The position numbers were made by a program, and so were the translations under genes. Below, piece after piece: positions 16,189-48,191 of a stretch of DNA of 64,000 nucleotides. Under the pieces are notes generated by a model. It saw nothing but the letters and a program-made list of their open reading frames with translations. It was not told the origin of the DNA and did not search any database. How positions within the stretch are numbered: the first letter of the stretch is position 1; every line of letters begins with the position of its first letter. Source of the DNA: a virus. Location: the IMG/VR virus record IMGVR_UViG_3300010397_000041, positions 28,426 through 92,425 of that record; one strand, written 5' to 3'.

Positions 16189-17973
16189 TCAGCTCGTCGG
16201 CTGAATCCCGACGATCATCGACGAGCGGTCGGGGGCGTACGCGGCCATCGTCGACGTCCAGTACACGGACGTGTCGTACGACATCTGCATGACGGGCCAA
16301 TCGATGCTCATGTAGTCCTGTGGGCCGCGGATCTCCCAGCAGTTCGCGACGTTCACCCCGGGAACGGTGATCGACGACTGGAGGACGACGGCGTTACCCT
16401 GCGGCATCCAGGGGTGCACCTTGATGTCGACGGAGCGGCCGGTCGTCTCGTTCACGATGCTCGTGACGACGCTGCCGAGCTTGACGCCCATCAGCTGGTC
16501 CTCGGAGATCTCCAACCTGTAGTTGGAGGCGGACTGGCCGCGCAGCGTCGAAGAGATCTGATGCCTGTCCTGACCCGACAGCCAGATCTCCTCGGGATCC
16601 GCCTTCGTCGCCGCGTAGGTCGCGGCGAACGCGGCCTGGAACTCGGCACCCGGGCTTGCCGTGGAGAACGGGGCGTTGAGCCGGCCGACGTAGCCGGTGG
16701 TGGCGGCCTGCGACCAGATCCACGGGATGATCCCGTCGTAGTTGTCCGGCCGGGCCGACACACCGTCACCGGTGGCGAGGTTGACGGTCGCGCCGCCCTG
16801 GATCGGCCAGGCGGCGACGGTCGCCGTGGCGAGGCTTCCCGAACCGGGGGTACCGATCGCGCCCTGCAGGGTGAGGGTCTGCGTCGGGGTGCGGCCCGCG
16901 GACTGGTTGCTCGGAAACGCCGGGCCGACGTACAGGTAGCGGCTCGCGTCCCCGGGGTCCGAGGCGCCGGTGGAGACGAACACCTTGTAGCCGGTGGTCC
17001 CGGTCACCGGGTTCGGGATGGTGATGTCGACGACCTGGCCGGCCGAGACTGCGATACCCGAGGACGCGGACGACGCCTGCGAGACGCCGAACTCGCCGCT
17101 TTCGGCGACGACGCGGACGTAGACGTTGCTGGTGAACCCGGTCAGCGCCGTCTCACCGGTCGCCGCGTTCCGGGCCGCGCCGGTCGGCGTGCCCGACGGG
17201 GCGGCGACGAGGCCGCTGTACCCCTGCAGGGTCCCGCGGCCGTAGAGCATCACCCGCTCCTCGGCCAGCATCGAGGCGTAGAGCGTGGCCATGCGGCTCA
17301 GCTCGCGAGTGTCCTGGAATCCCATCGCGCTGAAATAGGTCCAGAACGACTGTTCATCGCTGGCGCCCATCTGCACATAACTGAGATTGGTGTCGTCACC
17401 GGCGTAGCTGATCTTCTGCGGGCGGTTCCACCACAGCGGGTTCGCCGAGCCCGGGTTCGCGAAGTTGACCTGGGTCGGATCGGTGAATCCGGGGTTGAAC
17501 GCGCCCAGCCCGCCGGTTCCGGAACCGGAAATACCGGTCACCCTCTTGTAGCGGTATGAGGTGCCCATTCCCTGCGTGCGGGGGAACTTGTTCCTCATCG
17601 GCGTCAAGATCGGAGCGAGGAGCAGCGCCGGGGCACGCAGGTCGAAGCCGACGAGACCACCGGGCACGGGCGACGTCGGGGTGATGTCCTTCTGCAGCCA
17701 GTCCGCGCCCAACTGCTGGGCGACCGCCGCCTCGACCGCCGCCATCTTGTCCGCGGACACGCCCAGGTTGCCGTACGCCTTCGTCAGAACCTGACGGGCG
17801 TTGCCGCGGACCGTCGGGACTAGCGCCTTGTTCATGACGTCGAGTTCGACGTCACCACGTTGCGTGTTCGGCGTCGTCTCGACCGCCATCCGGAAATCAG
17901 CGGCGGCCTTGACCAGGTCGGCGTCGGAAAGCTTCGCGCCGAACAGCTCGCGCAGCAGCGTCGTCGAACTCAT
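16189..17973 (-). CDS. Major capsid protein with an internal Ig/FN3-like insertion
   Basis: GFDLRAPALLLAPILTPMRNKFPR, EERVMLYGRG, VHPWMPQG motifs; follows protease/scaffold; AGAGG RBS. Confidence 0.88.
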   Translation of the reverse strand: MSSTTLLRELFGAKLSDADLVKAAADFRMAVETTPNTQRGDVELDVMNKALVPTVRGNARQVLTKAYGNLGVSADKMAAVEAAVAQQLGADWLQKDITPTSPVPGGLVGFDLRAPALLLAPILTPMRNKFPRTQGMGTSYRYKRVTGISGSGTGGLGAFNPGFTDPTQVNFANPGSANPLWWNRPQKISYAGDDTNLSYVQMGASDEQSFWTYFSAMGFQDTRELSRMATLYASMLAEERVMLYGRGTLQGYSGLVAAPSGTPTGAARNAATGETALTGFTSNVYVRVVAESGEFGVSQASSASSGIAVSAGQVVDITIPNPVTGTTGYKVFVSTGASDPGDASRYLYVGPAFPSNQSAGRTPTQTLTLQGAIGTPGSGSLATATVAAWPIQGGATVNLATGDGVSARPDNYDGIIPWIWSQAATTGYVGRLNAPFSTASPGAEFQAAFAATYAATKADPEEIWLSGQDRHQISSTLRGQSASNYRLEISEDQLMGVKLGSVVTSIVNETTGRSVDIKVHPWMPQGNAVVLQSSITVPGVNVANCWEIRGPQDYMSIDWPVMQMSYDTSVYWTSTMAAYAPDRSSMIVGIQPTS

Positions 17974-17997
17974 GGAAATGCCTCTTTCGGGCATACG

Positions 17998-18028
17998 AAA
18001 AGCCCGCCACCCTGCGGGAGGACGGGCC
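17998..18028 (-). terminator. Hairpin with T-tract just upstream of the capsid gene
   Basis: GCCCGTC...GGCGGGCTTTT on the - strand. Confidence 0.4.
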
Positions 18029-18055
18029 TCGAATGTGGTCTGGGGGGATGCGCCG

Positions 18056-20041
18056 CTATGCGGCGGCGGGCGGGTCCAGCGCGTCGAGCTGCCGCTGAAT
18101 CTCGGCCCGCATCGCCGGGTCGGCGCCGGGGGCGTCACGCATCGCGCGCAGCACGCCCTTCTTCACGTCCGCCTCCGCTGTCTTTGCGAGCTCGGCGGGC
18201 GACACCGGAGGCTGCACTCGCGTCCTGGCAGGGCCGCCCGGCCTCGGCGTCTCGTGCAGCGTGGCCTTCACCTCTGCCAGCCCCTGCGCGAGGGGCTCCA
18301 TGGCCTTCGTGATGGCGTCGCCGAACTGCGCCGCGAGGTCGGCACTCACCCGTGCGGTGATCGCCTTCGTCAGCGTATCGGTGTCGGTGGTGCTGGCCGC
18401 CTTCGCCATGTCAGGCTCGGCGGGGGTCTCGGTGCCGGCCTCGCCGGCGTGGGTCGCGGCCGCGGCCGCGGCCGCCTTCTTCAGGCGCTTCCGCATCTTC
18501 TTCGCGGCCTTTTCGGCGGCAGCCTTCATCAGGTCGGGGGTGCCGGCCTTCTCGGCGCCGTCCTCGGTCGGCTCGGACAGCGCGCCGGCGTCAGGCTCGG
18601 TCATGTGCTTGATCTCCATGGCTTCGTTCCTCATGAACCAGGTCACGAGCTCCGCCGCCTGCGCGAGCAGCGCGATGTCCGCCACCTCGCCGAGCTCGCC
18701 GAGGAACAGGCCCATCGCCTCGGAGCGGATCAGGCACGCCAGGCCCTGGATGACGGCCTTCGCGGCCGCGATGTCGTCCATCTCGGACGCGGCCGCGGCG
18801 TTGTCGGTGAGCTGCAGCCCGCCTTCGTCGCCGTCGTCGGCCTTGACCACGTCGGGCGCCGTAGCCTTCTCCTTCGGCTTGGTGGAGCCGGGCCAGTCGG
18901 CGGGCAGCAGGTCCGTCGCGTCGAGGGCCTTTGCGCGATCGGTGATGTGCTTCTTCGCGGCCGCCGGGTCCTTCGCACGGCCGAACGCCTGGATCGCGTC
19001 GTTGAGCTGGGCCCGGTTCTGGATCGGGAACCCGCCCGACGGCATCGCCTCGCCCGCGGCGGCCGCGTCCTCGCGCTCGCCGGCGGTGAACTTCCGCTTC
19101 TCGAGCTCGGTGGCGACCGCCTTGATCAGCGTGTCGAAGTCGGGCTCGACGGCCTTGCTCGAGGACTTCGCGCTGCCGGTGTCGTCGGCGTCCTCGCTGT
19201 CGGGCTTGCCGTCCCCGTCGTCGTCCTCATCGTCCCGGTTGTGGACACCGTCGCCGTCAGGGTCGGAGCCGCCCTGGCCGCCGTCCTCCGATTGGAAGGG
19301 CTTGGCCTTCCGGCCACCGAACTTGCCGGCCTTCTTCCGCTTCGCCAGCGTCTCCGGATCCGCGGCGTCCGGGTCGTCAGGGTTGGCGACGACGGAGGGG
19401 GCGGTGAGCTGGTCGACCAGGGCGGCGGTCATCGGCAGCACCCGACCATCCGAGGTCTTGAGCAGCATCTGTGGGCCGGGCGCGACAGGGACCGCATCGA
19501 CCGCCTTCTCGACCTCGTCGCCTTCGACGAACTCGGGGCTGTCGACGAGGTCGAGCGAGCCGGTCGCCTTGTTCAGCGCGGCCATGCGAAACAGCGCCGA
19601 CGGCAGCGAGGGCCGGTCGACGGCGCTGACTTCGATCACGTCGCCCCGGCAAACCTTCCCGTTGGGCGCGTCGGTGGCCTTGGCAAGGCCGTAGTTCGCG
19701 ACACCGACCGAGAATCCGGTCAGGATTCCGTGCTCGATCTTCGCTTCGGCGACCGGGTCGACGATCTTCGCCCGCATGTGCCACGAGTGGTCGTCGGTCT
19801 CCCAGACCTCGACCGCCTTACCAATCGGCCGTTGGGCCGAGTGGCCCTCGCGGACATTCCCACCTGACGGCCCGTGCATGTACGCCGGGATCGCGGCCTT
19901 GAGCCACGTCGGGTCCATGCGCTGGCCGTCGGAGTCCAGGTCCGGGCCGGTGAACTTGCCCTCTACCCAGAGGATGCCGGCTTCGTCGCGTTCCTTGCGC
20001 AGGAACGGGGTGTAGATGTCCAGACGCTCAGCAACGGGCAT
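18056..20041 (-). CDS. HK97-family prohead protease fused to scaffold
   Basis: DSDGQRMD, GNVREGH, GILTGFSVG, IEVSAVDRP motifs; long acidic/Ala-Lys C-terminal region. Confidence 0.88.
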   Translation of the reverse strand: MPVAERLDIYTPFLRKERDEAGILWVEGKFTGPDLDSDGQRMDPTWLKAAIPAYMHGPSGGNVREGHSAQRPIGKAVEVWETDDHSWHMRAKIVDPVAEAKIEHGILTGFSVGVANYGLAKATDAPNGKVCRGDVIEVSAVDRPSLPSALFRMAALNKATGSLDLVDSPEFVEGDEVEKAVDAVPVAPGPQMLLKTSDGRVLPMTAALVDQLTAPSVVANPDDPDAADPETLAKRKKAGKFGGRKAKPFQSEDGGQGGSDPDGDGVHNRDDEDDDGDGKPDSEDADDTGSAKSSSKAVEPDFDTLIKAVATELEKRKFTAGEREDAAAAGEAMPSGGFPIQNRAQLNDAIQAFGRAKDPAAAKKHITDRAKALDATDLLPADWPGSTKPKEKATAPDVVKADDGDEGGLQLTDNAAAASEMDDIAAAKAVIQGLACLIRSEAMGLFLGELGEVADIALLAQAAELVTWFMRNEAMEIKHMTEPDAGALSEPTEDGAEKAGTPDLMKAAAEKAAKKMRKRLKKAAAAAAATHAGEAGTETPAEPDMAKAASTTDTDTLTKAITARVSADLAAQFGDAITKAMEPLAQGLAEVKATLHETPRPGGPARTRVQPPVSPAELAKTAEADVKKGVLRAMRDAPGADPAMRAEIQRQLDALDPPAAA

Positions 20042-20099: not shown

Positions 20100-20429
20100 A
20101 TGAGCGACGACAGCCCGCAGTACGAGCCACTCGCGGCCGGCGGCGCAGTGAAAGCGACTGCCTACCTGCCCGACTTCGATCGGTGTGAACTCGCCATCGC
20201 CAACCCGCAGATCAGTGACCGGGGTGTGGTCGATGGCGGCCGGCTCGTAGAGGTCTCGCTACCGAAAGACATCGCGGCGAAGCTGACGCCCGGCCTGCTG
20301 CATGGGCTGTCGGTTGGGCAGACCGCTGATCGGGTCATCCCGCATTGGAACCGCACATCGATGCCGATCGACGCGCCAGCGCTCGGGATGCTGACAGATA
20401 CCGACGAGCCGGAGACGGATCAGCCGTAG
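20100..20429 (+). CDS. Small antisense-oriented protein with permuted prohead-protease-like motifs
   Basis: GGAGA RBS; GGRLVEVSL and AKLTPGLLHGLSVG resemble motifs of the adjacent protease. Confidence 0.6.
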   Translation: MSDDSPQYEPLAAGGAVKATAYLPDFDRCELAIANPQISDRGVVDGGRLVEVSLPKDIAAKLTPGLLHGLSVGQTADRVIPHWNRTSMPIDAPALGMLTDTDEPETDQP

Positions 20430-20686
20430 AGCATCCCGAGTAGCGCCGGATACTCCCCGCCGGTCGGTGCAGGTTCGGTCTCGGCCGGGCCCAGCGCGCG
20501 CTCGACCGCGTCGACGAGCCGGCCGAGCTCCCGCACCCGGCTGAGCGTCGGCCGGTCGGTCAGCGCGGTGGCCGCGACGGTCAGCAGCGCGTCCGCCAGC
20601 GGGACGGCCAGCGGGCTGGGGTCCCGCTGCAGTGCGATGCGGGCCTCGTGGACGCGGGCGCCGAGATCGTCAGGATCCGCCCGCAT
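20420..20686 (-). CDS. Hypothetical helical protein
   Basis: GAGGAG RBS; overlaps the upstream gene end. Confidence 0.55.
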   Translation of the reverse strand: MRADPDDLGARVHEARIALQRDPSPLAVPLADALLTVAATALTDRPTLSRVRELGRLVDAVERALGPAETEPAPTGGEYPALLGMLYG

Positions 20687-21110
20687 CGGCGCTCTCCTCG
20701 GACTCGGGGGCGTCGAGGCGCATCTGCTTGTCGCGCGCTGCGATCTCCCAGCGGGAGAAGGCGGTATAAACGTCGCGCTCGTCCTTCCACCCGTCCGATG
20801 GGAAGACCATCGCCGGAATCGACGGGTCCCTGCAGAGCACAGCGGCATAGACCCGGTGCTGGCCGTCTATGCCGACCATAGAGCCGCTTTTCCGGACTCC
20901 GACGATCACCCGCTTGGACTGACGGTCGGCCTCGGACAGTTTCATCAGCGCAGCGACCTTGTCAGGGTCGAGTGGGCGCTGGCTGTGGACCCGGTCGAAC
21001 ATGATCAGCTGAGGGTCCAGGTAGACCGGCGACAGCTCGTCGTCGTCGAGGCCCAGGTCGGCGGCGGTGTACGTCGTCGGGTGGTTGTGTTCGCCGTCCT
21101 GGTCAGCCAT
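20670..21110 (-). CDS. ParB/Srx-fold DGQHR-motif protein
   Basis: SQRPLDPDKV...IDGQHRVYAA. Confidence 0.7.
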   Translation of the reverse strand: MADQDGEHNHPTTYTAADLGLDDDELSPVYLDPQLIMFDRVHSQRPLDPDKVAALMKLSEADRQSKRVIVGVRKSGSMVGIDGQHRVYAAVLCRDPSIPAMVFPSDGWKDERDVYTAFSRWEIAARDKQMRLDAPESEESADAGGS

Positions 21111-21483
21111 CGGCGGGCACCGGGTCGCCGAGGAACGTCACCGTGTTGCCGGCCCTGACGGACCGCTGGTCCGCTTCGGGGATGTCCAGCGGTGGCATGT
21201 CCAGCGCAGCGCGCGCCTCGTTGACCGTCATCCGTCCGGTTCCGACCTCGGCCGCGAGTCGGCGGTCCTCGAACTCGTGCCAGGCACGCCACTGGGCGTC
21301 CGACATGGGGACGAGCGAGTAGGCGATCTGGTTCTGATCGTCCGGGTTCGGCAGGGTGACGATCAGGTCGACGGTGACAGCCGTGCGGTTGGGCCACGCG
21401 ATAGTGAGAGTCACCTCGCCGGGGGCGACGGCTATCCCGGTTGGCCGAACCGGCGAGACGCTGATCTCAGGCAGGTCAGACAC
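21103..21483 (-). CDS. Small protein carrying a portal C-terminal-like segment
   Basis: GRMTVNEARAALDMPPLDIPEAD aligns with the window's portal; GGAGG RBS. Confidence 0.7.
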   Translation of the reverse strand: MSDLPEISVSPVRPTGIAVAPGEVTLTIAWPNRTAVTVDLIVTLPNPDDQNQIAYSLVPMSDAQWRAWHEFEDRRLAAEVGTGRMTVNEARAALDMPPLDIPEADQRSVRAGNTVTFLGDPVPADG

Positions 21484-21817
21484 GGGGACCTCCGAAGCCG
21501 GGGCCGTTGCGCAGCCTCTGCCGTTGGATCTCTTGCCACAGCCGCTGGCCGTCGATGTGAACCGGTGTGCCGTCGGGGAGGGAACCGATCGGGGCGCGCC
21601 GCTGGATCGCGTCGACCTTGGCGTGCAGCGCGGCGAGGGCCTGCTCGTGGGCGTCGTGGCGAGCGTGCAGCTCGTCGCGATGCCGGGCGAGGTGTACACG
21701 CATCCGCCAGACGGCGAGGGCGCCGGCGGGGGCCGCCCAGATCGCCGAGGCGATCAGGTTCGACCAGATGCCGCCAGCCGGCCACGCGAAGAACACGTCG
21801 AGAAGATGCACAGGCAT
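21476..21817 (-). CDS. Membrane protein carrying a tape-measure C-terminal-like segment
   Basis: GAGGAG RBS; N-terminal TM; VHIDGQRLWQEIQRQRLRN aligns with the TMP C-terminus. Confidence 0.65.
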   Translation of the reverse strand: MPVHLLDVFFAWPAGGIWSNLIASAIWAAPAGALAVWRMRVHLARHRDELHARHDAHEQALAALHAKVDAIQRRAPIGSLPDGTPVHIDGQRLWQEIQRQRLRNGPGFGGPRV

Positions 21818-22107: not shown

Positions 22108-23919
22108 TTACAATACCGCCCAAAGGCCGAGAATGAAATACAGATAATCCTCGTCCTGCGCGAGCATCATCGGGTCATCTGATGATCCGATAAGCATTTC
22201 CGAGCCCATCGACGCGACTTCCCAACCGTCCGAGGGCGAGTCGCTGTAAACCCTGCCGATGTAGGGGTCTTTGAACTCGTCGGGGCGGGACATTTCGTCC
22301 GCGTCGTAGGGTTCAGGTGACAGCGCCCGCATGGACCTTTTACGGCCCAACCGGGTCCACGTTCGGACACCATCGACGAGGTGGCTGTTCCGGTCGGCCC
22401 AGAACACCCATTGGGCGCCGACGATACCTGGCACGGCCCACTCCATCATGTGGGCCAGCTCGTGAACCGCGATCACGTCGCTGTCCATCATCGCAACGAC
22501 GATCTTAGGGGTTTTCCCTTTCGCGCCAGCCGAGAAGTAGGCCCGGCCGCGCTGCTTCATTGCCGCGCGGAGCGGTGCCTTGTCGGAGGCGCGCCGCACC
22601 CAGTCTGACGGAAAATGGCGCAGCATCCGGGAGATCCGTCGCTGTGCCGCTTCGGCCGACGACTCGGTGAAGGCGATCTGGCCGCCCATGGGCCGCAGGT
22701 CACCGAGGACTTGAAGCCGGACGTCGGCCAGACGGCCGGAGATCTGGTCACGGCGCTGCTCGGCGGCTTGCAGGTCGTCCAACGCCCGCTCGTATCGCTG
22801 GCGCAGGTCGTCGACGTGCGCCTGATCGGGCGTCGCCTCAGCGGCGGCCTGCTCGAGCTGGTCGCCGAGACGTTCGGCGTCGGCTTCCAGTGCCGCGATC
22901 CGCTGGGCCAGCGCTTCCTGTTCGGCGAGCTGCACCGCCAGTCTCTGCCGCGCTTCCTGTTCGATCTGCTTTCCGACGTCGCGCAGGACGTTGACCTTCG
23001 CGATCGACGCTTGGTCGGGTAGCCCCTGGGTGTCGGCGTCGTACACCGGTTTGCCGTCTTGGAGGATCGTGCCGATCCGCTCCGGGTCGCCGATCTCGCT
23101 TCGGGCGTTGTTCACAGCGTCCTGGAGCCGCCCTGTCGACCTGTGGGGGGTCGGCGACGCGGCTGGGCGGGGGCTGTCGACGGCGTCGGGTGGCATGCTG
23201 GCATGCCGCGGCGTCGGCTCGTCCGCCAGGCCCGTCTCGTCGTCGGCCGTCTCGTCGTCGGACTCTGCGCCGGCGTCGTCCTCGGCGATGTCGTCGTCTT
23301 CGAGATCGTCGGCGGCGTCCAACTCGCCGCCGGCTTCGCCGTCCAGGCCGAAGTCGGACAGGCTGTAGCCCATCGAGGTCAGATCCGCCGGGGTCAGGTA
23401 ATCCGCCGTTACTGCGCACCGGCATTTCGGATGGGTCGGCGGCCAGCCATTAGGTGGTTCATCGTTCACGGGGATCGGCCCGGCGTCCTCGTTCTCCTGG
23501 CAAAGAGCACACACGCGAAGATCGTTGGAGCTGAGCACCGAGGCGGCGGGGAATCCTGCATCCCGGTAGGACGCGAGACTGGCCGCCGTCATCGCCCGGG
23601 CCATCTCAGTGGTGGCAACCATCTCCGCCCACGCCGGGTCGTCCAAAACTCCTTGCAGCGTGCGGGCAAGCTCGTCAGACGAAGCGCCGCGGGCAACAGC
23701 GTCCGACACAGCGCCTGACAGCTTGTCGAGCCGGTTGTCTTCGATCGAGGCGAGCAGGCTCCCGCGTTGCGCGGCCCGGTCGGACCAGGAGGCGTCGCGG
23801 CCTACGGCCTGGGCGATGAGCTGGTCCTGCTGGCGGGCGAGACGTGCGGCTGGCTCGTGGCCCGGCGTCCAGCTGTCCCAGTCGATCGAGGACTCGACGA
23901 TGGGCGCGGCCACGGTCAC
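22108..23919 (-). CDS. MuF (SPP1 gp7-like) minor head protein with C-terminal HEXXH domain
   Basis: MVATTEMARA, RVCALC, PPTHPKCRC MuF motifs; VHELAH...EVASMG in the extension. Confidence 0.82.
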   Translation of the reverse strand: MTVAAPIVESSIDWDSWTPGHEPAARLARQQDQLIAQAVGRDASWSDRAAQRGSLLASIEDNRLDKLSGAVSDAVARGASSDELARTLQGVLDDPAWAEMVATTEMARAMTAASLASYRDAGFPAASVLSSNDLRVCALCQENEDAGPIPVNDEPPNGWPPTHPKCRCAVTADYLTPADLTSMGYSLSDFGLDGEAGGELDAADDLEDDDIAEDDAGAESDDETADDETGLADEPTPRHASMPPDAVDSPRPAASPTPHRSTGRLQDAVNNARSEIGDPERIGTILQDGKPVYDADTQGLPDQASIAKVNVLRDVGKQIEQEARQRLAVQLAEQEALAQRIAALEADAERLGDQLEQAAAEATPDQAHVDDLRQRYERALDDLQAAEQRRDQISGRLADVRLQVLGDLRPMGGQIAFTESSAEAAQRRISRMLRHFPSDWVRRASDKAPLRAAMKQRGRAYFSAGAKGKTPKIVVAMMDSDVIAVHELAHMMEWAVPGIVGAQWVFWADRNSHLVDGVRTWTRLGRKRSMRALSPEPYDADEMSRPDEFKDPYIGRVYSDSPSDGWEVASMGSEMLIGSSDDPMMLAQDEDYLYFILGLWAVL

Positions 23920-24511: not shown

Positions 24512-25045
24512 TTAGAAGATGCTGCGGCCGCCGCGTGGCGCGCCGGGCGCTTCTCTCATCAGCTGGTCGAGGCCGCGTCGCTCCCGGTGCCGTTTCCGGT
24601 GCTGCCGATCGTCCTGGCCGCCCGGCGTCGCTGCCTTGACCGCCGGTGCCGGCTGGTGGTGCAGCCTCGGCGGATCGAGCGGCACAGGCTTCGGCGCGGC
24701 TTTGGCCTGCGCTCGCCGCACTGCGTCGTCGGCCGCCAGTTCCCCGGCCGCCCAGCCGGCCCGGTAGCAGTCCCTCAGAGCCGGGCCCAACGCGCCTTTG
24801 CGGGCGTGTTGGTCGAGGATCAGCCGGATCTCGTGCCGCAGGATCTGCGGGTCGGTGGTCGTCCCGCCGGGCCAGCGGGCCGCGAGGACGCGGGCGACGG
24901 CTTCCGGGTCAATAAGTCGGCTGGCAGCCTGGGATACCCGCTCGGCGTAGCGCGGGTTCAGCGCGTCGTGCGCCTGGAAGCCGATCCACTGCGCCCGCTC
25001 CCTGGTCAGGTCGCGGGCTTGCGGCTCGCCCCCCGCCACCACCAC
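24512..25045 (-). CDS. MuF N-terminal-like region overlapping the portal end; possibly a frameshifted portal extension
   Basis: ALRDCYRAGWAAGELAA helix typical of MuF N-termini; no clear RBS; +1 frame relative to portal at a G6 run. Confidence 0.5.
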   Translation of the reverse strand: MVVAGGEPQARDLTRERAQWIGFQAHDALNPRYAERVSQAASRLIDPEAVARVLAARWPGGTTTDPQILRHEIRLILDQHARKGALGPALRDCYRAGWAAGELAADDAVRRAQAKAAPKPVPLDPPRLHHQPAPAVKAATPGGQDDRQHRKRHRERRGLDQLMREAPGAPRGGRSIF

Positions 25046-27218
25046 CAGCCTTCGCCAGCTCGGCTACGGCCGCTTTGGCTCTCAGGGCGGCGAGCCCCGG
25101 CTGGTTGTCCTGCACCATGACGTTCAGTTCGCGGGCCAGCTGCTCCGGCACTGCAGTGAACGTGAACGCGCGGGACCTGCCACCCGACTTCTCCAACCGG
25201 GTTGCGTAGCGGGCGAACGCACCCAGCTCGGCCGCGACCGCCTTCGCCTCGTCCTTCGGACGGTGCGGAAAGCCATCCTCGGCCAGCCCGTAGGCCAGAC
25301 AGCCCGGCTCGCCGTCCGTGGGGACGAACCGGTGCTGGATGTCCTGGGCGTCGCCGGCGGTGCCGTCGATGCCCTGCGCCTGGCGGGCCGCCTCGCCAGC
25401 CTCCTGGAAGGCCTGCGTGGTGGCGGTCTTGGCTACGGCCGTCTTCTGGCCCGAGCCGTCCGAGGCGGACGCCGGCTTGGGCGGCGCAGCTTCCTCGCCG
25501 GCGTCGGAATCGTCGCCGGAGTCGTCGTCGGATTCTTCGGACTCGTCGGCCTGCTTCCCGCGGGCCGGTCGCTGCGCGGGCGCGGCTTGGAAACCCGCGA
25601 CGGCGGCCTGCGAGCCGGCCCTCGCCGCGGCCCCCTGCGCCTCCTGGATCGCCTTCTGGCCGTCGAGGAACAGGACGCCGCGGCCGTAGGCGACGAACGG
25701 CTCGTCGGCTTCTTCGATCGGCAGCGGCGGCAGGCCCATCTCGTCGCGGGCCTCGTTCAGCGTCCGCCGGCCGCCTTTGACCTGCGTGTCCAGCACCGCA
25801 TCGGCCGATGCCTGGTCTTCTTCCTCGAGGCCGAGGAATTTGAACTCGACGGCGGGGTGGACACCGAGGTAGCGGTGGTTGATGTCGTTGAAGATCGCGG
25901 CGAGCCATTTGCACCACGGGTGGATCAGCTTGCGGTACTGGATGTTCTCCTGGCCCTCGTGGTAGCTGCTGCCCCCCAGGCCGCCGGACTCGATGAAGCC
26001 GATCTCCGCCGGGGTGACACCGAACGCGGCGGCGATCAGCTTGACCAGGAACAGGTCGTACTCGGGCTTGTACTTCTGCGCGTTGTCCGTGAAGGTTGCC
26101 AGCTTGCCGCCGGGCAGGCCGATCTGGATCCGCTGCCGTTCGGAAAGGTTCCCCGACAGCGTGTTGTTGATCTCGGCGCGCCAGCGGCGGACCTCGGCCG
26201 GGGTCATACCCTTCGCCGACTCAGGGACCTCGAGGAACGCCATCGGCAGCGACGAGGCGTCGAACTCCTGGGTCAGCCAGTCGGCGCGTTTCAACCACAG
26301 GTTGATCTCGATCAAGGCTTTTTCGACGGGGCTGATGCCGTAGGGCGAGATGGTACGGACCTCGCGGCGGCAGTAAATCAGCTCGTCGGCGGTCAGCCCG
26401 CCGTCGATCGTGCCGTCCTTCCCGATCGCCGCGGTGAACTCGCCACGAGGGAAGCCGTACATGATCTGCTGGAACGCGGGATCGGGCGGCAACGGCCGCC
26501 GGCCGCGGTTGTCCAGAAGCGGCTTCACGAACTCGCCTGCGATGATCTCGCAGGCCAGGTCGTTGCCGTACGACCAGCGCGGATTGATCGCCAGCGCGTC
26601 GAGGACCAACGACTCTTCGAGCGCCATCCCGAGCCAGTCGACGAAGTTGTAGCCGCCGAACCGGTCGGGCCGCTTCCAGAACGCACGCGCCTTCGCGATG
26701 TCCGGTGCGAGCTTCTCCCGCAGCGCCGACTTCGCCTGGACCTTGCGGATCCCGTCGAGTTCCATCGCGGTGGTGACGGCATCCTCGGACACGGTGGTCG
26801 CCCAGTCGAGCCCGCAGATCTCCGATTTGATCAGGGAGATGCAGTAGCGGACGATCCCGACGTCGGCTGCCTTCCGCAGCGTCTCGAACGGCACATGCCG
26901 CCGTTCACCGCCGGGGACGTTCCAGCCGACCGGATATTCCCAAACCCTGGGGTCCGTGCGGCCGTCGGGGCGAAGCGGGTCGATCGCGTACGGCCCGGGC
27001 GGGGTGAGCGGGCCGAACGGAGCCGTGTAAGGAAGTTCGCGGGGCAGCGGCTCGTAGGCGCCGATCGCCACACCCGACTGCACCGCGCCCGCCGCGGCCG
27101 CGGCCGCCTGCGCGGACATGTCCCGGGTCTGACCGCCGGCGGCACGGGCCGCCGCCGCGTACGACGCCTTGTCGAGCTGGCGGCGCTTACGGTTGCGGGC
27201 ACGGCTGCGAGACGACAC
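24909..27218 (-). CDS. Portal protein
   Basis: Follows terminase; YGISPVE, AAAFGVTPAEIG, TLNEAR..MGLPPL motifs; GAGG RBS before GTG. Confidence 0.92.
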   Translation of the reverse strand: MSSRSRARNRKRRQLDKASYAAAARAAGGQTRDMSAQAAAAAAGAVQSGVAIGAYEPLPRELPYTAPFGPLTPPGPYAIDPLRPDGRTDPRVWEYPVGWNVPGGERRHVPFETLRKAADVGIVRYCISLIKSEICGLDWATTVSEDAVTTAMELDGIRKVQAKSALREKLAPDIAKARAFWKRPDRFGGYNFVDWLGMALEESLVLDALAINPRWSYGNDLACEIIAGEFVKPLLDNRGRRPLPPDPAFQQIMYGFPRGEFTAAIGKDGTIDGGLTADELIYCRREVRTISPYGISPVEKALIEINLWLKRADWLTQEFDASSLPMAFLEVPESAKGMTPAEVRRWRAEINNTLSGNLSERQRIQIGLPGGKLATFTDNAQKYKPEYDLFLVKLIAAAFGVTPAEIGFIESGGLGGSSYHEGQENIQYRKLIHPWCKWLAAIFNDINHRYLGVHPAVEFKFLGLEEEDQASADAVLDTQVKGGRRTLNEARDEMGLPPLPIEEADEPFVAYGRGVLFLDGQKAIQEAQGAAARAGSQAAVAGFQAAPAQRPARGKQADESEESDDDSGDDSDAGEEAAPPKPASASDGSGQKTAVAKTATTQAFQEAGEAARQAQGIDGTAGDAQDIQHRFVPTDGEPGCLAYGLAEDGFPHRPKDEAKAVAAELGAFARYATRLEKSGGRSRAFTFTAVPEQLARELNVMVQDNQPGLAALRAKAAVAELAKAGGGGGGRAASPRPDQGAGAVDRLPGARRAEPALRRAGIPGCQPTY

Positions 27219-27240
27219 GGGGCCACCTCGCGCGCCTTGG

Positions 27241-27438
27241 TTAGTCGTGCCGCGGACAGCCGCCCATGACCACCAGGCCGTAGGTCGGATGCCAGTGGCA
27301 GCCGCATCCCAGGCCGCGGCGAAGCCACACGTGGGCGATGAACAGGAAGCGCCGCGGGCCGGGCCTGTACCCGGCCTCACGCCAGAGGGGACGCATGAAC
27401 CGGACGTAGCCGATCAAAGTCACAGGGTCCGCCTCCAA
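27241..27438 (-). CDS. Hypothetical small protein
   Basis: Fills the terminase-portal gap; Cys/His-rich end. Confidence 0.4.
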   Translation of the reverse strand: MEADPVTLIGYVRFMRPLWREAGYRPGPRRFLFIAHVWLRRGLGCGCHWHPTYGLVVMGGCPRHD

Positions 27439-29054
27439 CCCTGCGCGGATTCGCCCCCGCCGAACCAGGCCGACATGTCGACCGCCGCAGGCTCCCGCGC
27501 TTCGGGCGGCGGCTGCTGGTGCGCGTTGGCGTCGGATTCGGCGATCAGCTGGTCCATGAAGCTGGCGAAATCACCCCGCAGATCCACGAAGGCGAGGATG
27601 AGCGCGTCGGCGTTGTCGGGCGACCGGCCGAGCCGCTCCCGTTGATCGTCCTTCGGCTCGACCTGGATCTGCCCGCGGCTGTTCGGATGCCACTTCGCGG
27701 TCAGCAGCTGATTGCAGGCGTCGTCAGGATTCTCCGCGCCCGACTGCCACACACCGTCAGCGTTGTAGACGGCCGGGGAGAGGTCCCACGCCTGCTGCTC
27801 GGACTGGAGCCGGCCAACCTCCCACCAGATCTCCGACCGCAGGTTCGCGAACCGCTTCGAGTCGGTTGCCTGCTGGCCGACGTTCACCCCGGTCACCGTC
27901 GCCGTGTGGGTGCCGTCGCCGCGGAGCTCCTTCAGCCGGTCGGCTACGCCGGCGCCGATACCGATGCTGTCGACGTTGACGGCCGTCGCCCCGGTGATCT
28001 CAATCGCTTTGAGGACCAGGCGGACGACGGACATGGTGTCGTCGTCGCGGTCCCGCCACTCCCGGCCGACCATCCGGCCGCGCCGCTCCCGGATCACAGT
28101 CTCATCGCCGCCGCCACCGACGTCGACACCGAGGACAACCGGGGTGAGCTCGTCCGGGGTGTACTCGCGGTCGGTGGGCTGCCGGCACTTCGCCAGGTCA
28201 GAGGAGCGCACGACCTGATCGGAGGCGTCCAGCGGGAACTCGCCGAGAACCTTCTCGAACCAGAGCGGAGAGCCCTCACCCCAGTCGGCGCGCTTCTCCT
28301 CCACCCACGTCTTCGAGACCAGCGCGCGGCGCAGCAGATCCGGGACCCGTTCGCCGGTCAGGTTCGGCGTGTCGAACGCGGAGATGGTGATGACGTGCCA
28401 GCCCGAACCGGGACGGCAGACCTGCGCGAATTCGCTGGAAGGGTCGGCAGGGTTGCCGATCGCCAACAGGGCGCAGCCCTCGTTGGTCATGAGCGCGTCG
28501 GCGGCGGTCCACAGCCAGCCGGGGATCCCGCTCGCCTCGTCCAACGCAACCAGAACGCCGTCGGGGGCGTGGATGCCCTGAAAGGCGGTGCGGCCCTGCT
28601 CCGTGTCGGGCGGTTTCCGGCCGAAGCCGATCAGCTCTTTGCCGAGCTTCCACTCCGTGGTGAGCACCCGGCCGGGTAGGGGCGTGCCACGTTCCGCGGC
28701 GACCGCCGCGGCCTGGCCGATGTAGCGCCACAGGATCGCCTGGACCTGGGCAGCCGACGGCGCGGTCGTGACCGCGAACGCCTGACCGGGAGTCCGGGTC
28801 GCAAGCCAGTGGGCCACGACCCGAGAGGCAGTGTGGGACTTTCCGCAGCCGTGTGCCGACTTGACCGCGACCTTACGGTGCCTGGTCAGCGCGGTGACGA
28901 TCTCAACCTGCTTGGACCACAGATGCTCGCCGAGCACGTCCGACACCCACAGCGCGGGGTCGGTGCGGTACTGCTGCTGGCGGGCCTCGCTGTCGAGCCG
29001 GTCGAGAGCGGCGAGCAGGTTGGATGACAGCCGGTCGGGCAGCGCTACCACCAT
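27420..29054 (-). CDS. terL: Terminase large subunit
   Basis: Walker A SAHGCGKS, Walker B VALDEA, IGNP, nuclease LGVDVG, SPDNADAL. Confidence 0.96.
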   Translation of the reverse strand: MVVALPDRLSSNLLAALDRLDSEARQQQYRTDPALWVSDVLGEHLWSKQVEIVTALTRHRKVAVKSAHGCGKSHTASRVVAHWLATRTPGQAFAVTTAPSAAQVQAILWRYIGQAAAVAAERGTPLPGRVLTTEWKLGKELIGFGRKPPDTEQGRTAFQGIHAPDGVLVALDEASGIPGWLWTAADALMTNEGCALLAIGNPADPSSEFAQVCRPGSGWHVITISAFDTPNLTGERVPDLLRRALVSKTWVEEKRADWGEGSPLWFEKVLGEFPLDASDQVVRSSDLAKCRQPTDREYTPDELTPVVLGVDVGGGGDETVIRERRGRMVGREWRDRDDDTMSVVRLVLKAIEITGATAVNVDSIGIGAGVADRLKELRGDGTHTATVTGVNVGQQATDSKRFANLRSEIWWEVGRLQSEQQAWDLSPAVYNADGVWQSGAENPDDACNQLLTAKWHPNSRGQIQVEPKDDQRERLGRSPDNADALILAFVDLRGDFASFMDQLIAESDANAHQQPPPEAREPAAVDMSAWFGGGESAQGWRRTL

Positions 29055-33180: not shown

Positions 33181-33281
33181 CGCTGCCACCGGTCCCGCTC
33201 GAAGTAGACGCCGAGGGTGAAGCCGAGCAGACCGGAGGCGAGGGCGGCCAGCACGATGATCAGGATGGTGCTCGCGGTCAT
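33177..33281 (-). CDS. 34-aa membrane peptide (MTASTILIIVLAALASGLLGFTLGVYFERDRWQR)
   Basis: Translated by hand; ATGA and GTGA couplings on both sides. Confidence 0.55.
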   Translation of the reverse strand: MTASTILIIVLAALASGLLGFTLGVYFERDRWQR

Positions 33282-33730
33282 GATGTTGACTCCGCTGCGA
33301 GCAGGAACCGCATCGCCTCGTCGCGGCGGAACCCTGCCTGCAGGTGCGCGGCGAGCGTCTCGTACCGGGCCCTCGCAACCGGGTCAGGAGGCAGGGCTGT
33401 CGGCCCGGTGACGACCGCCGTGGCTGACGGCAGCCAGTTGCACGTCAGGATCGGCACACCCCGGCCGGTAAGCGGATGGGCCACCGTCTCGATAAATGCG
33501 GGCTTGTTCAAAGCATCGTCGTAAGTCCGAGGCGGCCGGACCGCGACGGCAAGCACCGTTTGCGCCGTCGACGACATGTAGATCCCGGCCGGTTCGCCAC
33601 CCCAGTCCCGGACAATCGTTTCCAGGGCGTCGAACAGCCGGTCTGGTGCTGCGACCCTACTGACGTCGATTTGGCGGAGTTCGCCGGTCTCGCCGTCGGC
33701 CCAGTAGATGTGGGTCAGGTCGCCGGTCAT
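33278..33730 (-). CDS. Small protein resembling the C-terminal (A-domain) part of the major capsid protein
   Basis: EPAGIYMS and LTGRGVPILTCNWLPSATAVV align with the window's capsid; GGAGG RBS, ATGA coupling. Confidence 0.65.
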   Translation of the reverse strand: MTGDLTHIYWADGETGELRQIDVSRVAAPDRLFDALETIVRDWGGEPAGIYMSSTAQTVLAVAVRPPRTYDDALNKPAFIETVAHPLTGRGVPILTCNWLPSATAVVTGPTALPPDPVARARYETLAAHLQAGFRRDEAMRFLLAAESTS

Positions 33731-43317: not shown

Positions 43318-43557
43318 TCACCGCCCGGGTTCGAGGTCGCGGAGCAGTTCAGCGAGCGGGCAGCCGACCGCGCGGGCCAGCGCGGGCAGGCGGGCGACGG
43401 CGGGATCGTTTCGGCCGGTCTCCCAGTTCGCGATGACGTGGCGGCTGACGTCGAGCGCGTCGGCGAGTTCGAGCTGGGTGAGGCCGGCGATCCGGCGGTG
43501 GTGGGCGATCGCGCGGCCGAGGGTGACCAGGACGTGGTTGCGTTCGCGGCTGGTCAT
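43318..43557 (-). CDS. XRE-family HTH protein
   Basis: GLTQLELADALDVSRHVIANWETGRNDP. Confidence 0.88.
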   Translation of the reverse strand: MTSRERNHVLVTLGRAIAHHRRIAGLTQLELADALDVSRHVIANWETGRNDPAVARLPALARAVGCPLAELLRDLEPGR

Positions 43558-47485: not shown

Positions 47486-47820
47486 CGCAGCCGCCGGTGC
47501 TCGTCAGCGTTCGGGCAGGTCGTGAAGTGCGAGACCCACCGCGTGCCAGCTCGCTCCCGGTCCGCCGGGATCACCCGGGCGACGACGATGCCGCCGGTCC
47601 GGGTGCAGGCGACGTTGCCGGTGGGCGTCGGGTCGCGGTCGATCGGTATCCACTCCCCCTTCGGCCAGGTCAGCGCCCAGCGGATCGATGCGCGGCAGGA
47701 CTGGCACGTCGGCCGCTTCTGGCCGTACTCGGCCCGCCAGCGGGTCGTGAGCGCGTCCAGGAGGGCCGCGTCGAGCTGCGCAGCGACCTGCGGGATGTCG
47801 ACGAACAGGTCGGCGCTCAC
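47482..47820 (-). CDS. Phage Zn-finger protein (CQSC.ASIRWA...SHFTTCP)
   Basis: Motif recalled from phage proteins; GTGA coupling. Confidence 0.7.
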   Translation of the reverse strand: MSADLFVDIPQVAAQLDAALLDALTTRWRAEYGQKRPTCQSCRASIRWALTWPKGEWIPIDRDPTPTGNVACTRTGGIVVARVIPADRERAGTRWVSHFTTCPNADEHRRLR

Positions 47821-48191
47821 CAGCGCTTCTCCAACGCGAAGTCCCGGTGGAAGCCGGAGTGGCCGGCCGCGAGACCGCAGGTCGCGCGGGTCCACGTCGG
47901 CGGCGGCCCGGCTGCGACAAGCGGCGCGACGTCGGCCTTCATCGCGCAGCGCCAGTGCTGCTCGCCGAGGAGCCAGCCGGGCGACACGGCGAGCGCCTCG
48001 GCCAGCTTGATCAGGTTGGGGATGGTGATTGCCCGGTGGCCGTGTTCCCAGAGGCTGATCGTGTGGCGGCTGACGCTGACGGCGTCCGCGAGCTCCGCCT
48101 GCGTGCGGCCCTGCTGGCCGCGTTCGGTGGCGATGCGGGCGCCGATCGTCTTGAGGAGTTCGTCGCGCGGGTCTGGGCTTGGCGCGGTCAT
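47817..48191 (-). CDS. XRE-family HTH protein
   Basis: RTQAELADAVSVSRHTISLWEHG...LAEALAVSPGWLL. Confidence 0.88.
   Translation of the reverse strand: MTAPSPDPRDELLKTIGARIATERGQQGRTQAELADAVSVSRHTISLWEHGHRAITIPNLIKLAEALAVSPGWLLGEQHWRCAMKADVAPLVAAGPPPTWTRATCGLAAGHSGFHRDFALEKRW

Follow-up and report, generated by a model that had tools for sequence, protein, structure and literature searches.

A small gene in the head module of a 92-kb, terminally redundant, high-GC phage encodes a 126-residue protein, here called the mini-protein, whose C-terminal module is homologous to part of the crown in the portal made by the same phage. The window, meaning the whole 64,000-nucleotide stretch of DNA that was analyzed, spans bases 28426-92425 of a virus record that is 92,425 bp long and bears direct terminal repeats; GC content in the window is ~70%. 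Judged from its sequence features, the mini-protein gene is an intact, coding-like, translationally coupled member of the late head-morphogenesis operon (Table 1).

Table 1. The mini-protein gene, its parts and its surroundings. Positions are those of the window unless a contig is named.
Feature	Position	Strand	Remarks
Large terminase	27420-29054	-	
Portal gene, longest ORF	24909-27380	-	Pfam PF04860, E 2.8e-13; phrog_2662, E 2.8e-62
Resident-portal segment matching the module, ORF residues 527-574	25659-25802	-	BLASTP and hhalign
Two small ORFs between the portal and MuF genes		-	
MuF-domain protein with C-terminal extension	22108-23919	-	
91-aa ORF between the MuF and 113-aa genes		-	
113-aa protein, upstream neighbor	21476-21817	-	48-64% identical in L003, L004, L006 and L010 (tblastn)
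Ribosome-binding site GGAGG	21489-21493	-	5 nt upstream of the mini-protein GTG; read from sequence
Upstream junction GTGTCTGA	21476-21483	-	mini-protein start overlaps the stop of the 113-aa gene
Mini-protein gene	21103-21483	-	GTG start at 21483, 126 codons, TGA stop 21103-21105
N-terminal orphan region, residues 1-72	21268-21483	-	predicted beta-rich
Portal-crown-like module, residues 73-120	21124-21267	-	helix, short helix, beta-hairpin; sequence homology and AF2
Downstream junction ATGGCTGA	21103-21110	-	TGA stop of the mini-protein gene overlaps the ParB-like ATG start
ParB-like protein, 146 aa, downstream neighbor	20670-21110	-	phrog_1033, E 1.7e-7; 55-62% identical in relatives
Protease/scaffold protein	18056-20041	-	
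Major capsid protein	16189-18138	-	
P0011, 55-aa module-only ORF	L018:10001-10165		begins 1 nt past the stop codon of a tape-measure gene (1457 aa)

On the minus strand, the head module runs in the order terminase, portal, two small ORFs, MuF, the 91-aa and 113-aa genes, the mini-protein gene, ParB-like, protease/scaffold and capsid. The mini-protein gene lies 3.4 kb downstream of the portal gene, whose true start is probably ~50 codons downstream of 27380 because relatives align from residue 51 onward, and the MuF gene is 0.6 kb upstream of it. Each of the two overlaps with a neighboring gene measures 8 nt. In addition, the GC content at codon positions 1, 2 and 3 of the ORF (0.70, 0.50 and 0.86) is like that of the terminase, portal and MuF genes, and the N-terminal 70 codons show this pattern on their own, as do the C-terminal 57 codons. 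Since both halves of the ORF match the neighboring head genes in this respect, the frame is likely to be translated and to have resided in this genome for a long time.

The similarity to the portal was noticed in a first-pass annotation, which aligned the mini-protein to the portal without gaps at 20 of 39 identical residues and described the preceding ~85 residues as lacking portal similarity. The count and both coordinate ranges are correct, and BLASTP extends the ungapped match to 22 of 46 identical residues (mini-protein 73-118 and portal ORF 527-572, window 25665-25802; E 2e-8). Comparison with portal profiles, which had been proposed as a check, agrees as well: when hhalign was used with a 17-portal profile built from the portals of this phage and related uncultured phages, residues 73-120 aligned to profile columns 516-563 with a probability of 96.7% (E 3.7e-10). 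Nothing in that profile aligns to residues 1-72, and thus the description of the N-terminal portion stands except for its length, which is about 72 residues.

Other comparisons point in the same direction. The Smith-Waterman score of the mini-protein against the portal is 93, compared with 35.3 +/- 4.8 (maximum 59) for 1000 shuffled versions of the mini-protein, which places the similarity 12 SD above shuffled sequences. The portal family phrog_2662 matches residues 69-112 (E 3e-4), a match that spans only positions 378-424 of its 717-position profile. The module is 46-48% identical to the resident portal and likewise to the profile consensus. All of the portal-invariant positions are kept in the module (G83, R91 and E103), as are N88, E89 and P97-P98, and the pattern G-x-x-T-x-N-E-x-R ... 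P-P ... E-A-D ... hairpin is retained. These observations show that residues 73-120 are homologous to the resident portal. The Pfam search at E up to 10, which included the PF04860 family model, returned no match to the mini-protein other than a weak one to GntR; at E 0.069 this match is below any threshold, and the corresponding helix-turn-helix reading was rejected.

The crown is the innermost ring of the portal, where it faces the packaged DNA. The motif had been assigned at first pass to the C-terminal crown region of HK97-type portals, and alignment to solved portals places it there: the matching segment of the resident portal aligns to residues ~445-485 of the phage 812 portal (8q7d), in which the crown comprises residues 437-507 (PMC12886913). 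In an alignment of the resident portal to HK97 gp3 (8cez), the segment falls at residues ~380-397 of 424.

Only over residues 61-120 does AF2 model the mini-protein with confidence (pLDDT 78-91), and there it predicts a strand, a long helix, a short helix at T-x-N-E-A-R, a one-turn helix at P-E-A-D and a beta-hairpin. The order of elements is the same in segment 461-521 of the portal model (strand 461-465, helices 472-485, 491-498 and 506-509, strands 512-515 and 518-521). In the portal model the hairpin is followed by a long helix (522-549), which the mini-protein lacks, ending 6-8 residues past its own hairpin. Because this helix is absent, the module is the basal or first part of a portal crown and not a complete crown.

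Structural searches retrieved portals as well, with a query that was the AF2 model and whose input alignment had included portal segments. In VIA-align, the module superimposes on residues 335-380 of the T5 portal (9imv_A) with Z 6.3 and an rmsd of 1.9 Å over 46 residues, and the top four rows are all portals (Z 6.3, 6.2, 5.3 and 4.7), compared with Z 2.6 for the best non-portal row. The top three Foldseek matches in the PDB are T5-family portals (probability 0.89-0.99, E 0.1-0.4), and the top BFVD matches are portal/COG4695 proteins; the E-values of these searches are weak because the match is short. All portal structural matches lie within model residues 62-114, and the clip, stem and wing are absent from the mini-protein. 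A co-fold of the portal (550 aa, 17-row alignment) with the mini-protein, run with no controls, scored 0.00 and weighs neither for nor against binding.

The N-terminal region is probably beta-rich, as judged from a model of low confidence. Residues 1-72 have no domain match in Pfam, and AF2 predicts three strands there with pLDDT 33-55. In phmmer searches this region, for which an FN3/Ig-like beta-sandwich was considered, matches FN3/cadherin-like repeat proteins by way of sums over multiple stretches, and the VIA-align rows for it reach Z <=2.6.

Evidence for how the gene arrived comes from comparison with related phages. Using the portal as query, 15 related viral contigs were retrieved, among which the closest relatives covering the region (L003, L004, L006 and L010) have portals about 56-57% identical over the full ORF. 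In all four, the 113-aa gene and the ParB-like gene are directly adjacent, and tblastn finds the mini-protein gene absent. In L003 and L010, TTGGCTGA joins the flanking genes with the same overlap geometry as both mini-protein junctions. Because the flanking genes abut in the four closest relatives examined, the mini-protein gene is a lineage-specific cassette of ~373 nt, with a chimeric product, that was inserted exactly at a gene boundary, with the overlap junction reproduced at both ends. It had been suggested that the proposed role would fall if the whole ORF were a decayed portal remnant with no intact homologs elsewhere. The idea of a decayed portal was rejected, since just 48 columns align and an intact, coupled frame is inserted between otherwise adjacent genes. 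The lack of intact homologs nearly holds, in that the full-length protein is a singleton and only its module recurs.

The idea that the module recently duplicated from the resident portal was also rejected. The two segments are 62% identical in nucleotides, and the same codon is used at 15 of the 22 identical residues, where codon usage alone predicts 11.5. With synonymous sites this close to what codon usage would give, the module is evidently old or foreign and has diverged. Its similarity to portals of several clades is roughly equal (49% to L099, 46-56% to L003-L009 and 48% to the portal of its own phage). In a 55-column tree, the module groups with the small protein P0006 and the foreign portal-MuF fusion L099 and not with the resident portal (support 89/89), a grouping that is weak owing to long branches.

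Several observations concern the plasticity of this neighborhood in related phages. In L006, a gene whose 423-aa product has numerous CxxC/CxxH repeats and a C terminus of EndoVII/HNH-like type (L006:15228-16499) lies between the ParB-like and protease genes, which indicates that this part of the head operon accepts insertions. The portal, MuF and ParB-like domains are encoded by separate genes in the window. In the distant relatives L007, L008, L013, L014, L016 and L017, a portal, a MuF and a ParB-like (DGHHR) domain occupy a single ORF of roughly 1100-1500 aa (for example, L007:9722-13033 and L013:5652-9836), suggesting that rearrangements near the portal C terminus are common in this group. 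A Nudix-like stretch is also present in the fusion ORFs of L013, L014 and L017. Furthermore, the portal ORF of L017 (L017:8831-13360) carries in its N-terminal part an insertion of ~280 aa that looks like an intein and ends in ...YSHNS before the conserved portal sequence resumes. The tail of the resident portal past the glycine run A-K-A-G-G-G-G-G-G (window 24909-25100) has protein-level similarity in L003, L004, L006 and L010; the in-frame reading of the tail is therefore conserved, which bears on a frameshift proposed there.

Free-standing copies of the module are scarce. A word-indexed search of 5.8 billion clusters matched the mini-protein only to itself, and an exhaustive phmmer search of 1.84 billion representatives found the mini-protein itself, beta-repeat proteins (through summed repeats in the N-terminal part) and one small protein, P0006. 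On this basis, the full-length mini-protein can be regarded as a singleton of which only the module recurs. P0006, the best non-self match among these representatives, is a 125-aa hypothetical protein from a JGI metagenome that matches the portal profile with a probability of 93% and whose residues 77-122 are 54% identical to the mini-protein module. The two proteins are alike in size and in the C-terminal position of the module, whereas P0006 has an unrelated, Cys-rich N terminus with CxxC and a low-GC-style composition. P0006 had no homologs in the search and is thus itself a singleton, and it was not located in the viral or metagenome contigs searched. A TGR/SV/GNT signature was considered as a feature exclusive to the mini-protein and P0006 and was dismissed, since AGNT-V/I-x-FL occurs in the portals of L047 and L058 and TGRMT in L099.

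A profile search among small proteins added the module-only P0011 and two entries that resemble C-terminal portal pieces. No clear ribosome site is visible upstream of P0011, and a split portal was rejected as its explanation because it adjoins a tape-measure gene. The other 79 matches of P0011 in viral contigs are all inside long portal or portal-fusion ORFs. The 53-position profile phrog_25202, which matches the portal, matched neither the mini-protein nor P0011. Like the mini-protein, P0011 is a free-standing crown module outside any portal gene; unlike it, P0011 has no N-terminal domain, no obvious ribosome site and a different portal clade, grouping in the 55-column tree with the portals of L019-L021. 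This difference in clade implies independent origins, so that free-standing crown modules have arisen at least twice. Small ORFs carrying the module are rare and come from different portal clades.

A module-only query of the ESM Atlas gave about 30 clusters of hypothetical proteins, 56-76 aa long and for the most part viral (score 0.94-0.95), in one of which 23% of members carry PF04860; these clusters serve as a lead only and could be gene fragments. Searches of deposited phage genomes by tblastn with the mini-protein, P0011 and the portal segment, queries too short for the size of that database, gave nothing. Two further sequences share a short string with the module. One is a 127-aa ORF among recombination genes, with RecT nearby (L100:5914-6297), that has the exact 11 residues TGRMTVNEARA in common with the mini-protein; it was rejected as a relative because nothing beyond this string is shared, and the string was treated as a short helix-capping motif. 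Similarly, scaffold/protease-region proteins of distant relatives (L013:14685-14729, L014:18707-18751 and L017:19205-19267) contain G-K-M-T-V-D-E-A-R-A, which resembles the crown motif G-R-M-T-V-N-E-A-R-A and may be a helix-capping motif only.

The possibility of a wider "virion-mimic system" in the window was considered and is not supported, since only the pair formed by the mini-protein and the portal is significant. The other proposed pairs were at chance level when E-values over 14-30 residues were calculated against a database of 76 ORFs: the 113-aa ORF at 21476-21817 (-) against the tape measure (E 0.017 over 24 residues), a 109-aa ORF at 20100-20429 (+) against the protease (E 0.87 over 14 residues) and a capsid-like ORF at 33278-33730 against the capsid (E 0.05). 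Two small, coding-like ORFs, 43318-43557 (-) and 47817-48191 (-), are paralogs of one another, 43% identical across 67 residues (E 1e-10). They are the only pair reported from the all-against-all comparison of 76 composition-filtered window ORFs, in which the mini-protein ORF does not appear among the subjects.

What the mini-protein does is best approached through its gene context and its module, which together suggest a putative modulator or accessory of portal assembly and not one of its core components; the first-pass annotation had proposed a portal decoy or a modulator of ring assembly. We favor this reading tentatively, with slightly less than half of our confidence behind it. The gene would be dispensable, because close relatives lack it. 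Since it is translationally coupled to the head genes, its synthesis should coincide with that of the portal. The module would then offer the side and base surfaces of a crown subunit, and because such surfaces would be made alongside the portal, the mini-protein would most likely dock onto subunits of the portal or onto the partner that normally touches the base of the crown within the procapsid. Recurrence of the architecture in P0006 and of the module in P0011 also speaks for this reading. Several facts count against an accessory role, namely that the protein is a singleton, as is P0006, that the closest relatives lack the gene and that the crown it carries is only partial.

Singleton status and absence from the closest relatives speak for the main rival, in which illegitimate or boundary recombination with another phage left a functionless chimeric ORF, composed of a portal piece and unrelated sequence, that simply has not yet been lost. 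We regard such debris as doubtful on balance and yet as a serious contender. It would also fit the other module-bearing small ORFs, which are singletons or nearly so and come from different portal clades, as sporadic and short-lived events would produce, and it would suit a region plastic enough to hold the HNH/EndoVII-like insertion of L006 and the portal fusions to MuF/ParB-like domains in distant relatives. Debris is harder to reconcile with a frame that is intact over 126 codons and fully adjusted to the genome in composition in both halves, and with synonymous sites near the codon-usage expectation, which imply that the sequence has long persisted with neither a frameshift nor a stop arising. 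The gene also keeps an intact ribosome site and intact coupling junctions at its two ends, every portal-invariant residue is retained and the module folds confidently in silico.

Two more roles are improbable. As an inter-phage weapon, the mini-protein would be a dominant-negative crown mimic: by capping portal subunits of satellites or of related phages infecting the same cell, it would keep their rings from closing and leave the resident portal unaffected. Portals of other clades resemble its module as closely as the resident portal does, and a patchy, lineage-specific distribution is typical of conflict genes; we nevertheless consider this role quite improbable, given that the gene lies within the late head operon and is coupled to it, and so would be expressed when the resident portal assembles, and that nothing points to early or lysogenic expression. 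More improbable still, to the point of being remote, is a bait or shield for a host immune sensor. Avs-type immune sensors recognize portal proteins, and the proposal draws on the general notion that immunity of this portal-sensing kind could be engaged by portal fragments made on their own. Nothing here indicates that a sensor recognizes the crown, however, the gene is in a late operon, and a sensor is unlikely to target a fragment of just 48 residues from an internal surface.

Of all parts of the portal, the crown is the least understood. A soluble copy of its base that occurs naturally and is made with the head proteins would be a ready probe for the contacts of that surface, and if the mini-protein acts on portal assembly, it would represent a small regulator of a new type, one derived from a copied piece of the machine under its control. 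If the gene is debris instead, it would be a clean example of how recombination at gene boundaries makes chimeric ORFs from fragments of structural genes. Among the roles proposed for the crown are sensing of the headful state, anchoring of the DNA by its leading end and exertion of pressure on the tunnel loops (PMC12886913, PMC10359639). It is conceivable, although unlikely, that the mini-protein, P0006, P0011 and the small Atlas clusters belong to a recurrent and undescribed class of phage accessory proteins that imitate a crown subunit. Such a class may regulate portal ring formation, DNA-end anchoring or the incorporation of internal head proteins, or it may sabotage the portals of competitors.

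Two known systems invite comparison. Residues 73-120 of the mini-protein match the crown of HK97/T5-type portals (PF04860; T5 9imv and 9ilp, DT57C 8hqo, phage 812 8q7d and HK97 8cez) in sequence and predicted fold. Those portals have a clip, a stem, a wing and the long helix after the hairpin, whereas the mini-protein has none of the four and, unlike a portal crown, is encoded by a separate small gene and carries an unrelated N-terminal region of 72 residues. Internal head proteins of the MuF/SPP1 gp7 type are encoded next to the portal in the head module and probably act on its inner face. The mini-protein resembles them in being the product of a head-module gene, but the two have no relation in sequence or fold, and in the mini-protein an association with the portal is a putative one.
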